Shown here: positions 16,537 through 37,101 of the stretch, piece by piece
Position numbering within the stretch: the first letter of the stretch is position 1
Layout of the letters: every line of letters begins with the position of its first letter
Source: a virus
Lineage: Duplodnaviria > Heunggongvirae > Uroviricota > Caudoviricetes
Strand: one strand, 5' to 3'
Length of the DNA: 51,075 nt
Virus record (IMG/VR): IMGVR_UViG_2872698443_000004
Span: 1 to 51,075 of that record
Notes under the pieces: model-generated
What the model saw: only the letters and a program-made list of their open reading frames with translations
The model's database searches: none
Told to the model about the DNA's origin: nothing
Made by a program: the position numbers and the translations under genes

Positions 16537-16611
16537 GGGTCAGTCGTATAAAGGTCATTACGGAAGGCTGTTAACCTTCTTATCGTGGTTCGAGTCCACG
16601 CTGTCCCGCCA
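16537..16611 (+). tRNA. tRNA, anticodon GUU (Asn) by manual fold
   Basis: 75 nt cloverleaf: acceptor with one mismatch, perfect anticodon stem GAAGG/CCTTC, loop CTGTTAA, T-arm CGTGG-TTCGAGT-CCACG, 3' CCA; D-stem weak. Confidence 0.5.
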
Positions 16612-16616
16612 AATAT

Positions 16617-16692
16617 GCTGGTTTAGCTCCAATGGTAGAGCAGTCGCCTTGTAAGCGAATGGGTAGCGGTTCAAGTCCGTTAACCAGCACCA
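16617..16692 (+). tRNA. tRNA, anticodon UGU (Thr) by manual fold
   Basis: 76 nt: acceptor GCTGGTT/AACCAGC, D-stem GCTC/GAGC, loop CTTGTAA, T-loop TTCAAGT, 3' ACCA. Confidence 0.65.
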
Positions 16693-33732: not shown

Positions 33733-34800
33733 ATGTCACAGAACTGGATGAGACATTTCGAGCTGCAGCTTGTGGACGGGAACGGTCAGGGAATTGAGCT
33801 AAGTGATTTCAAAGTCACCTTTACGATCGACTGGTTCAACATCAGCAGCGCGTCCCGGGTAGGGACTATCAAAATTTATAACCTCTCGGCAGATACTGTG
33901 AACCGAATTACCGGGCAGGAGTTTTCGAAAGTGCGTCTGATTGCGGGTTACGACGGTATCGCGCCGGAGGTGTCGGCAAGCGATGTCGGGACCGTGCGGG
34001 AGGTTGATGCGGCGGACGTGGGCCAGAGTGATGGCCGCAACTACGGACTGATTTTCAGCGGTGAAATTCGCTACTCGGTCACAGGAAAAGACAGCCCGGT
34101 TGATTCCTACGTCCTGATTCAGGCAGCCGATACAGATCTGGCTTTTGCCACCAGTATAACCTCACAGACGCTGGCTGCCGGTTACACGGTCGCTGATGTG
34201 AACCGTGCGCTGATGAAAGACTTCGAAGCCAAAGGTGCGACCGAAGGCCTGACGCCTGAAATGCCTGCTACTGTATTCCCCCGGGGGCGGGTACTCTTTG
34301 GCATGACGCGGCATCTTATGGATAATGTAGCCGGGCAATGTGGCGCAACATGGCAATTCGTGGATGGTCAACGCCAGATGGTGGCGAATAATGAATATGT
34401 TCACGAAGCGATTGTGCTCAACAGCGCTACCGGGCTTATTGGCATGCCGCAGCAGACTATCGGTAACGGCGTAAACGTCCGCGCGCTTATTAATCCGAAC
34501 ATCCGGGTTAACGGGCTCATTCAACTGGATCAGGCTTCAGTGTATCGTACCGCGTTGTCGAACAACGATATCGCGATGGCCGGTGGGCAGATCACCGACC
34601 AGAACACGGACGGAAATATTACGCTAAGCGGCACCACATCGCAGCCTGCCAGCATCGCAACGGATGGCGTTTATATTGTGCGTGGGATTATGTACACTGG
34701 CGACACAAGGGGGCAGGCGTGGTACATGGATATGATGTGTGAAGCACGTGGCGCGGCTGATCTACTTTCGTCCTCAGCGCAGCAAAGGATTTATTCATGA
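33733..34800 (+). CDS. Baseplate hub protein (Mu gp44 / P2 gpD-like)
   Basis: 355 aa, synteny. Confidence 0.5.
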   Translation: MSQNWMRHFELQLVDGNGQGIELSDFKVTFTIDWFNISSASRVGTIKIYNLSADTVNRITGQEFSKVRLIAGYDGIAPEVSASDVGTVREVDAADVGQSDGRNYGLIFSGEIRYSVTGKDSPVDSYVLIQAADTDLAFATSITSQTLAAGYTVADVNRALMKDFEAKGATEGLTPEMPATVFPRGRVLFGMTRHLMDNVAGQCGATWQFVDGQRQMVANNEYVHEAIVLNSATGLIGMPQQTIGNGVNVRALINPNIRVNGLIQLDQASVYRTALSNNDIAMAGGQITDQNTDGNITLSGTTSQPASIATDGVYIVRGIMYTGDTRGQAWYMDMMCEARGAADLLSSSAQQRIYS

Positions 34801-35144
34801 AGCGTATGAAGTTAGTTTTGACAATTTCGTTATTATTTTCTTGTTCAGCAGCTTTTGCTGATTTGCAATGCGGCGGATATCTACTTCATGCAGCTGATAA
34901 CGGTTGGACAAAAATCAACGGTGAGCAGGTAACATCACAGAAGATTACGTTTCTTGGTAAGAAAGATGACTGGGACAACGTTAAAACTAACATGGGCCTG
35001 ATGCCTTCTCGCGATGGCAACAATTACGGCTTTGAGTTTGTGAAGCGTAACGGAAAAGCTTTCCTGAACGTCCAGCTTCTGCAGAACAGCATGGATGCGC
35101 CTAAAATCATCGGATCTTTCCCGTGTAAAAAGGTTGATGGTTAA
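34797..35144 (+). CDS. Cargo gene A: small secreted protein with cleavable signal peptide
   Basis: MKRMKLVLTISLLFSCSAAFA then DLQCGG; two Cys; AT-rich; ATGA-coupled to baseplate hub stop; AAGGA SD. Confidence 0.6.
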   Translation: MKRMKLVLTISLLFSCSAAFADLQCGGYLLHAADNGWTKINGEQVTSQKITFLGKKDDWDNVKTNMGLMPSRDGNNYGFEFVKRNGKAFLNVQLLQNSMDAPKIIGSFPCKKVDG

Positions 35145-35312
35145 CCAAAAGTTACATTTCTGCATAGTGTTGAGTTTGTTCACATTCACTAAATAATGAT
35201 TTTTTATCGCTTGCTAGGTGGTTGCATGATCACTAAACTTTGCGAACTTTTAGCGCTCAGCTAACTTTGAATAAGTGGTGTATAGTCGTTTAAAACGACA
35301 GAGGGATTGGGT

Positions 35313-35885
35313 ATGGCGATTAGCTACGCATTTGCGCTGGCAACAATTACACAACAAATGAATCAGGTTCAGGAAGCTGTTAACGGTGCTTTCAAACCCC
35401 TGATCTCTAATGCTTGTGAACTGCCACAACGATTAGATGCTGAAGAGGTATTTCGTCGTTGTACCGCGATTGCTGCACGCGCTCAAGAAATCGAAAATAC
35501 CGCGAAGGAAGGCATGTCTCATCTCGAAGCTTTTCGAAATGGGAGAATCATTGTTGATGAGCTTCCGGAAGAGTTTTTATCCCATCTCGAAGGTCTTGCC
35601 AAGGCATGCCGAAATGCTAAAGGACATTTAGTGGATATGTTCTCTGAAGCGGAAAGATCCCCTATGTGGCAAGGCCATCTGCAAATGTTGCGCCCATTAA
35701 AACGCAAATATGTTCGTGCGTTGACCGCCGTCGAGAACACTGCAACTCAGTTGGCCGCTGAAGTTAGGCAATCGCAGCCTTTCCAGGCTGAACTCTTGTC
35801 AGATAATGTTACCCGTGAAGAGGCTATTGAACTGATCTCAACATCGCATAAGATGCTGGGAGCCAACGCCCCTAAATGGATGTGA
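35313..35885 (+). CDS. Cargo gene B: hypothetical helical protein (190 aa)
   Basis: ATG 35313 with GAGGG SD (track ORF begins with TTG 35307); no signal peptide; stop 1 nt before gene C start. Confidence 0.55.
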   Translation: MAISYAFALATITQQMNQVQEAVNGAFKPLISNACELPQRLDAEEVFRRCTAIAARAQEIENTAKEGMSHLEAFRNGRIIVDELPEEFLSHLEGLAKACRNAKGHLVDMFSEAERSPMWQGHLQMLRPLKRKYVRALTAVENTATQLAAEVRQSQPFQAELLSDNVTREEAIELISTSHKMLGANAPKWM

Positions 35886-35886
35886 C

Positions 35887-36303
35887 ATGGCAAAAGTCAG
35901 TATCACGGGAGAATTGCGTCATTTAGCTGCAGCACATAAGTATGCTCAAATGCTTGCCGATTATATTTCAAAGGGTTCCCAGTTCTGGTGTTTTGGTTCG
36001 TTAGGCGGTTTTGAACGTAACTATGATGCGATGGCTGCCAACATCAGGAAAATTCACTTAAAGCTACCTGGCGATAAACCCTGGCCTCCAGAAGCATCTC
36101 TGAGTGAACGGACATGTGATAATTTTTTGGTATATGCTCAGCATCTTTATATCGATGAACACTATCAGATATTGGCAATCATCAGCCCAAACGCTCATCA
36201 GCAAGCTGATTCGATGCTTCCCCGGCTGATAAAATTAGCAGAGGAAACCTTCATAGAACTTCCTCCTGATGAACTCGAAAAATTGAAAACCTACGATTCA
36301 TAA
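35887..36303 (+). CDS. Cargo gene C: possible YafO-like toxin (138 aa)
   Basis: Central segment IHLKLP...RTCDNFLVYAQH...ILAIISPNAH resembles recalled YafO-family pattern; tightly coupled to gene B. Confidence 0.4.
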   Translation: MAKVSITGELRHLAAAHKYAQMLADYISKGSQFWCFGSLGGFERNYDAMAANIRKIHLKLPGDKPWPPEASLSERTCDNFLVYAQHLYIDEHYQILAIISPNAHQQADSMLPRLIKLAEETFIELPPDELEKLKTYDS

Positions 36304-36304
36304 A

Positions 36305-36326
36305 CCCGCCACCCGGCGGGTTTTTT
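36305..36326 (+). terminator. Rho-independent terminator closing the cargo cassette
   Basis: CCCGCC-ACCC-GGCGGG hairpin followed by TTTTTT. Confidence 0.6.
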
Positions 36327-36345
36327 GCTTTCTGGAGCCTACTAA

Positions 36346-37101
36346 ATGGCAGTATCTGACCAGACCCGCAGCGGCGACCTTGCTGAAACATTCAAATCTG
36401 AACGGGAAACAACAAAGAACCAGATCCGAGTCGCTTTGCCTGGCATCGTCCAGTCATTCGATCCTGACGCTGTGACGGCGGTTGTGCAGCCTTCTATCCG
36501 TTCGGTTGAAACGGATAACGACGGCAATCGCGTTACCAAAAATTACCCGCTGCTGGTGGATGTGCCGGTGGTATTCCCGCGCGGCGGAGGCTGCACGCTG
36601 ACCTTTCCGGTAAAAGAAGGCGACGAGTGCCTGCTGATCTTTTCCGACCGTTGTATCGATTTCTGGTGGCAGAGCGGCGGCGTTCAGGAGACCGTCGACC
36701 CGCGCCAGCATGACTTGTCTGATGCGTTCGCCATCGTTGGCCCGCAGTCGCAAGCACAGAAAATCAGCGGTATCAGTACCAGCGCCGCGCAGCTGCGAAC
36801 CGATGATGGTGCGGCGTTCGTAGAGGTTGCCGCAGGACATAACATCACCGTTCAAACACCGGGCCAGCTCACGGCTACGGCTGAAGGTGGAACAACAATC
36901 ACATCCCCGACTATCACGCTGAACGGCAACGTAACGATTAATGGCAATCTGTCTCAGGGAATGGGCGAAAGTGGCGGTACTGCGACGATGCTTGGGCCGG
37001 TGACGGTGACTAACGATGTAAAAGCTGGTGGTAAGAGCCTGATGACGCACACGCACGGCGGAGTACAGACCGGCGGCGGTAACACAGGAGCGCCTAACTG
37101 A
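36346..37101 (+). CDS. Baseplate spike protein (Mu gp45 / P2 gpV-like)
   Basis: 251 aa, Gly-rich C-terminus; synteny. Confidence 0.5.
   Translation: MAVSDQTRSGDLAETFKSERETTKNQIRVALPGIVQSFDPDAVTAVVQPSIRSVETDNDGNRVTKNYPLLVDVPVVFPRGGGCTLTFPVKEGDECLLIFSDRCIDFWWQSGGVQETVDPRQHDLSDAFAIVGPQSQAQKISGISTSAAQLRTDDGAAFVEVAAGHNITVQTPGQLTATAEGGTTITSPTITLNGNVTINGNLSQGMGESGGTATMLGPVTVTNDVKAGGKSLMTHTHGGVQTGGGNTGAPN

Follow-up and report, generated by a model that had tools for sequence, protein, structure and literature searches.

The window, a stretch of viral DNA of 51,075 nucleotides, contains two small genes, B and C, which follow one another on the same strand between a baseplate hub-like gene and a spike gene (Table 1). 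A preliminary description of this locus had proposed that C is a possible YafO-like toxin paired with an upstream partner that is not YafN, and had pointed to the start of C, 1 nt past the stop of B, as a toxin-antitoxin-like arrangement. Exactly one base (35886) does separate the stop codon of B from the start codon of C, and the gene order, with the candidate antitoxin preceding the toxin at a spacing of the translational-coupling type, agrees with the arrangement described. Within the ORF list for the B-C region, the opposite strand held no competing ORF of more than 75 aa.

Table 1. Positions of the B-C cassette, its signals and the adjoining genes in the window
Feature	Position	Strand	Details
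Baseplate hub-like gene	33733-34800		
115-aa gene adjoining the cassette upstream	34797-35144	+	PHROGs phrog_3443, function unknown; low GC
Non-coding gap 5' of B	35145-35312		168 nt
Candidate cassette promoter	35211-35239	+	TTGCTA 35211-35216, N17, TAAACT 35234-35239; predicted from the sequence
Palindrome	35285-35299	+	Perfect 7-1-7, GTCGTTT-A-AAACGAC (15 nt); abuts the 5' side of the B ribosome-binding site
Ribosome-binding site of B	35301-35306		GAGGGA
Gene B	35313-35885	+	ATG 35313, TGA 35883-35885, 190 aa (ORF list and sequence)
Gene C	35887-36303	+	ATG 35887, TAA 36301-36303, 138 aa (ORF list and sequence)
Intrinsic terminator	36302-36329	+	9-bp GC-rich stem, then T-run; closes the cassette
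Spike gene	36346-37101		

Upstream of B, the siphovirus-type loci of Leclercia, Klebsiella, Pantoea and Serratia share a conserved promoter-like element, TTGAAr-N17-TACACT, with which the -10 element of the window aligns. The window has a 12-nt deletion at this element, and a different -35 element is therefore needed; TTGCTA-17-TAAACT appears to be the best substitute, and would be the putative promoter of the cassette. Another consensus match (TTGAGT-16-AATAAT, 35170-35197) was the sole one returned by a consensus scan, and shuffled sequences gave as many. The palindrome next to the ribosome-binding site may act as an operator, or may form a hairpin in the leader. It is partly conserved in the close Leclercia and Klebsiella loci (L003/L004; GTCGTTAAnAGCGGC) and absent from more distant ones, and we rejected a conserved operator because the 15-nt repeat is lost beyond close relatives. 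The leader RNA folded no better than shuffled sequences (z = 0.22), which, together with the lack of an Rfam match at or near threshold, led us to reject an RNA element or RNA antitoxin. The terminator, at -16.7 kcal/mol (z = -3.69), folded more stably than expected, with 0 of 200 shuffles folding equally well. In Serratia (L008:3350-3415; also L010 and L011), the part of the leader that separates the conserved promoter-like element from the ribosome-binding site of B contains a hairpin resembling a terminator, CCACCG...CGGTGG with seven T after it (RNA fold z = -2.68); this hairpin may be an attenuator, and has no equivalent in the window.

A region nearly identical to the window's is present in E. 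coli STEC1587, where it forms part of a lambdoid prophage beside a tRNA-Thr gene and proAB. That prophage combines lambda-like early genes with a myovirus-type tail as in Salmonella phage SEN34 (genus Brunovirus). Common to the window (16537-16692) and the STEC1587 prophage are phage genes for tRNA-Asn (GTT) and tRNA-Thr (TGT), which in STEC1587 are flanked by the Q antiterminator gene and the lysis genes. A 41.7-kb circular 'plasmid' record of Shigella flexneri 1a 0228 (L026; NZ_CP012733.1) also has the tail genes of the window, and its B and C proteins match those of the window exactly; this record is probably the circular form of the window phage rather than a plasmid.

The proteins encoded by C and B

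The product of C gave a significant match to the Pfam profile PF13957 (YafO_toxin), scoring 62.6 bits where the gathering cut-off is 25 (E = 4e-17) over profile positions 12-98 of 101. Compared directly with YafO of E. coli K-12, C showed 25% identity over 125 residues (BLASTP E = 5e-7) and an hhalign probability of 91.5%. These values bear out the resemblance to YafO that the preliminary description had proposed, and the three motifs it quoted (IHLKLP, RTCDNFLVYAQH and ILAIISPNAH) are all present in the translation of C. The score against the NCBIfam YafO equivalog (NF007377 / PRK09885) was 31.4 bits, under the cut-off of 153, and the passing of the family profile combined with the failure of the equivalog model indicates that C is a member of the family and not an orthologue of K-12 YafO. 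All members of the C clade that we found contain PF13957. C itself is identical to RefSeq WP_023565512.1, to which PGAP gives the label 'type II toxin-antitoxin system YafO family toxin'.

No chain in the PDB was related to C in sequence. An AlphaFold model built on an alignment of 27 clade members (pLDDT 95.2, pTM 0.89) predicted a fold of the RelE/BECR type, resembling RelE, HigB and YafQ, as expected for the family, with a C-terminal helical extension at residues 103-130. Fifteen positions are invariant in the clade, including H57, R75, N79, H86, H104 and D108, and three of them, H57, R75 and H104, have His, Arg and His as their counterparts in the alignment to K-12 YafO; this conserved set of residues argues for an active enzyme. 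K-12 YafO was found by experiment to be a translation-dependent mRNA interferase that is neutralised by the product of the upstream gene (PMC2814082), and the PF_YafO family has been catalogued with the antitoxin gene preceding the toxin gene (PMC11980606). By analogy, C, a family member by its profile match, is a candidate mRNA endonuclease. The protein is mildly acidic, with a pI of 5.8 compared with 7.0, near neutral, for K-12 YafO, and its C-terminal helices are more acidic still (pI 4.6).

B corresponds to RefSeq WP_001766747.1 ('hypothetical protein') and to PHROGs family phrog_35514, of unknown function. Neither Pfam, NCBIfam nor PADLOC returned a match above noise, and the hhalign probability of the B profile against YafN was 0.15%. 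This is in keeping with the earlier statements that B does not look like a Phd/YefM antitoxin and, at 190 aa against 97 aa, is about twice the size of YafN. A hit to the Pfam domain EAD5 (Effector-associated domain 5; E = 0.003) was confined to a single member of the 18 in the family and was dismissed as chance.

The AlphaFold model of B, obtained with moderate confidence (pLDDT 76, pTM 0.66), is all-alpha, with helices at residues 3-31, 43-75, 86-115, 123-154 and 168-181. These are predicted to form a four-helix bundle, the helices being ~30 residues long, followed by a less confident C-terminal helix and tail. Foldseek comparison of the model with the PDB gave nothing at E <= 1e-3, only generic helical-bundle resemblances, and no DNA-binding domain of the helix-turn-helix, ribbon-helix-helix, AbrB or Phd type was recognised by profile or fold. 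P29, W119, S178, H179 and W189 are invariant in the extended B family, and residues 121-155 are basic (pI 10.9). An exhaustive profile search recovered 14 relatives among 1.84 billion representative proteins, and a word-indexed search 34 clusters among 5.8 billion; all clusters with a named organism came from Enterobacterales, except one from a bat-faeces phage genome. Our literature search found no paper describing the family of B, nothing on WP_001766747 or WP_023565512, and no paper linking YafO with the NetFlax toxin-antitoxin network survey.

The closest known counterpart of the pair is yafNO of E. coli K-12. YafO and C both belong to PF13957 and have the core motifs IHL, RT-D/N, LVY and P-x-x-H in common, the antitoxin gene comes first in both systems with a gap of 1-2 nt, and the predicted fold of C places it in the RelE superfamily, to which YafO is assigned (PMC2814082, PMC11980606). 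In contrast, the sequence identity between C and YafO is just 25%, C falls below the equivalog cut-off, the helical 190-aa B bears no relation to YafN (97 aa, Phd/YefM class), and B-C is phage cargo, whereas yafNO lies in the SOS-regulated dinB operon. HigBA, RelBE and DinJ-YafQ, in which toxins of the RelE/ParE BECR fold are joined by proteic antitoxins, also differ from B-C: the toxins of these systems have no sequence-level relation to C and do not have its additional C-terminal helical extension (103-130), and their antitoxins bear helix-turn-helix or ribbon-helix-helix DNA-binding domains, none of which was recognised in B.

YafO toxins with partners other than Phd have been noted before. 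Leplae et al. (2011) describe 'guilt-by-association' antitoxins and YafO toxins with such partners, and report no YafO toxins on phages or plasmids (PMC3141249), whereas the clade of C is mainly phage-borne. A 2023 survey of E. coli toxin-antitoxin systems in mBio counts 13 partner clusters, 8% of them known, for 6 YafO_toxin clusters (PMC10790755). Both surveys give the partners as bulk entries, without family definition, structure, distribution or validation, and these entries may include the family of B. The suggestion that B-C is a new toxin-partner pairing is supported by the computational results, the partner being conserved and not YafN, but its novelty is smaller than was implied: PGAP already names C, and YafO proteins with unknown partners are already in print.

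Pairing, mobility and decay of the cassette

In 11 of 11 independent loci with a recognisable relative of B, a PF13957 gene was located -1 to +6 nt downstream; the paired loci come from E. coli, Leclercia, Klebsiella, Pantoea, Serratia, Photorhabdus, a bat-gut siphovirus and two metagenome contigs. Even the two metagenome proteins that ranked last among the significant hits from the exhaustive search, with E values of 3e-4 and 1e-3, are paired with a PF13957 gene, and the association is kept down to ~22% B identity, which is the limit of sequence detection. Searching from the toxin side revealed clade members in Photorhabdus and Serratia liquefaciens with upstream partners of 185-212 aa that lack Pfam domains. 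The B profile scored 31 bits against the Photorhabdus partner and 7.5 bits against that of Serratia liquefaciens, which is barely detected, and both partners carry W119-x-(G/P)-H and S178-H179...P-x-W189. The Avibacterium upstream partner (165 aa) was the sole one past recognition by the B profile.

The two proteins have diverged together. Identities to the window copies of B and C, respectively, were 60% and 72% at locus L003, 52% and 65% at L005, 35% and 49% at L008 (Serratia), and 22% and 42% at L013; B and C identities are correlated at r = 0.93 in the set of 36 locus pairs, and B is always the more diverged. It is usual in toxin-antitoxin pairs for the antitoxin to diverge faster than the toxin. 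The pairing of B with C is not due to chance.

Across positions 34800-36300, the GC content of the window falls to 0.41-0.47, compared with 0.54-0.58 in the flanks. Among 5,426 complete E. coli genomes, 316 matched a 1.7-kb query extending into the flanking tail genes, but only 37 carried the cassette itself, and every one of the 37 copies keeps both B and C, each at no less than 98% identity. In the wider set of loci, the pair occupies four positions among tail genes, namely hub-spike, chaperone-tape measure, after the tape measure and before Baseplate_J; siphovirus-type prophages have it between a DUF6246 gene and the tape-measure gene, and the position before the Baseplate_J gene belongs to another myovirus type. 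Copies were also found at non-phage chromosomal sites. This range of positions indicates that the pair moves as a unit, and B-C is best read as a moron, that is, low-GC accessory cargo, of temperate phages, on the grounds of the GC dip, the 168-nt upstream gap, the terminator of its own, its rarity, and the occurrence of other genes at the same site in related phages.

In this phage lineage, the cargo at the hub-spike junction varies. At this site SEN34 has genes for proteins of 77 and 138 aa (L020:2331-3002, SEN34_20/21), and vB_EcoM-689R2 has a gene for a 111-aa secreted protein and one for a 170-aa protein (L019:3098-3942). We considered whether the 138-aa SEN34_21 might be YafO-like and rejected this, its Pfam matches being sub-threshold, with a lysis protein the best (E = 0.04).

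Decayed copies are mostly consistent with a toxin-antitoxin pair. In one E. coli genome (L025), C is frameshifted twice beside an intact B, and in one Salmonella genome (L023), C is lost and only a remnant of B is left. Toxin-antitoxin loci usually erode the toxin first (PMC13617665), and both copies fit this pattern, since C is damaged or gone while B, or its remnant, persists. The reverse was seen in one Logan short-read contig from public sequencing runs (L024:2119-2690), in which C is intact and B carries a frameshift near residue 88. An ORF of 73 aa that begins at M118 remains in this copy and retains both the basic helix of B and its conserved motif at the C terminus. The contig may be misassembled, may be a counter-example, or may point to residues 118-190 of B as the part that neutralises C. 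L023 and L025 represent a third prophage type, in which a gene on the - strand with an AntA domain (anti-repressor-like; L023:2944-3501 and L025:2817-3296) abuts or replaces the 3' end of C, and overlaps the degraded C in L025.

Proposed function and alternatives

B-C is a small co-directional gene pair with coupling-type spacing that is conserved as a pair, as in type II systems, and we favor the interpretation, with a probability of roughly 0.6, that it is a toxin-antitoxin module resembling type II, whose antitoxin belongs to a new family and which temperate phages carry as cargo, perhaps for abortive infection or addiction. B is probably the cognate antidote of C. In the mechanism we propose, transcription would begin in the non-coding gap ahead of B, and the two genes would be bicistronic and translationally coupled. 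Free C would act, by analogy with characterised relatives, as an endoribonuclease of RelE/BECR fold, cutting mRNA and stopping translation, and B would most likely block it through direct binding, as the conserved coupling, the co-divergence and the pattern of decay suggest. The likely contact region would be the conserved C-terminal third of B, comprising the basic helix at ~118-155 and the S178-H179...P-x-W189 tail; this proposal is speculative, and draws on the conservation of this third as well as on the opposite charges of B residues 121-155 and the C-terminal helices of C. With its own terminator and a probable promoter of its own, the cassette would be expected to be expressed from a repressed prophage, despite its location in a late tail operon. 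The benefit is conjectural, the likely ones being abortive infection, exclusion of other phages or prophage addiction; no known defence-system model in PADLOC-DB 2.0 matches B or C, which leaves a defence role a matter of conjecture.

Several observations weigh against the toxin-antitoxin interpretation. B appears to have no DNA-binding domain and is larger than C, which is atypical of autoregulating type II antitoxins; DNA binding and autoregulation are common, not obligatory, among antitoxins of this type. The model of B reaches only moderate confidence, and C is mildly acidic, K-12 YafO being likewise near neutral. The contig in which a frameshifted B lies beside an intact C also counts against the interpretation, except if it was misassembled or if the 73-aa ORF is enough for neutralisation.

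A possible but unlikely variant is that B is a sensor-type partner, whose bundle silences C and releases it on binding a protein of an infecting phage, such that the system would be one of abortive infection, not addiction. B is large and fast-evolving and has no DNA-binding domain, the cassette is cargo at variable sites of temperate phages beside candidate exclusion genes such as lipoproteins, and toxins of the RelE/ParE superfamily are documented in phage defence (PMC11980606), all of which would suit such a role. If true, it would explain why the cassette hops among the tail-gene cargo sites of unrelated temperate phages. However, PADLOC gave no match, B has no known sensor domain (the EAD5 hit in 1 of 18 members being chance), some copies reside at non-phage chromosomal sites, and the present data fit a plain toxin-antitoxin pair equally. 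It is possible but unlikely that B founds a new class of helical-bundle 'sensor antitoxins' without a DNA-binding domain, with the cassette a phage-borne abortive infection system.

It is improbable that B and C are unrelated or loosely related cargo, with C degenerate, non-toxic or otherwise neutralised and B having a separate role, such as regulator or chaperone. Although B has no known antitoxin domain, L024 pairs a frameshifted B with an intact C, and 'orphan' YafO toxins have been described in prophages (PMC10449497), this explanation is difficult to reconcile with coupling-type adjacency that persists to ~22% B identity, with the correlated divergence of the two proteins (r = 0.93), with their never being apart in 37 E. 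coli genomes, and with the 15 invariant residues of C, which include the candidate catalytic His and Arg. Finally, despite the location within the tail cluster, between the baseplate hub-like and spike genes, it is very improbable that B and C are assembly or structural accessory proteins of the tail or baseplate, as they are missing from most related prophages and from SEN34 and vB_EcoM-689R2, occur at four different tail positions and at non-phage loci, coincide with a GC dip and a private terminator, and include a predicted toxin fold in C.

Were the toxin-antitoxin interpretation confirmed, the RelE/ParE superfamily would gain, in its small YafO branch, a new family of antitoxins that are all-helical, ~190 aa long, free of known domains and restricted to Enterobacterales, at least the C clade of prophage 'orphan' YafO toxins would be resolved, and a compact mobile two-gene cassette would be at hand for testing prophage-encoded defence or addiction. 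Partner swapping by toxins and the carriage of toxin-antitoxin cargo by prophages are both established; B-C overturns no concept, and its novelty is moderate, C having already been named by PGAP.

Neighboring candidate cargo genes

The 115-aa gene that adjoins the cassette upstream encodes an N-terminal signal peptide (MKRMKLVLTISLLFSCSAAFA) with a possible lipobox, LFSC, and gave no significant match in PADLOC. It may be separate cargo, e.g., for superinfection exclusion. A three-gene system that includes it was considered and rejected, because a homologue occurs without B-C in phage vB_EcoM-689R2, and because the 115-aa genes 5' of B in L023-L025 are unrelated to it in sequence. Siphovirus-type loci have lipoprotein genes shortly 3' of B-C (L003:7061-7600; L005:7063-7359; L027:5043-5384), with a lipobox in Leclercia and Pantoea, and with SmpA/OmlA/BamE-like products in Pantoea and the bat-gut phage. 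The presence of lipoprotein genes near B-C suggests that the cassette tends to neighbor other candidate exclusion cargo.
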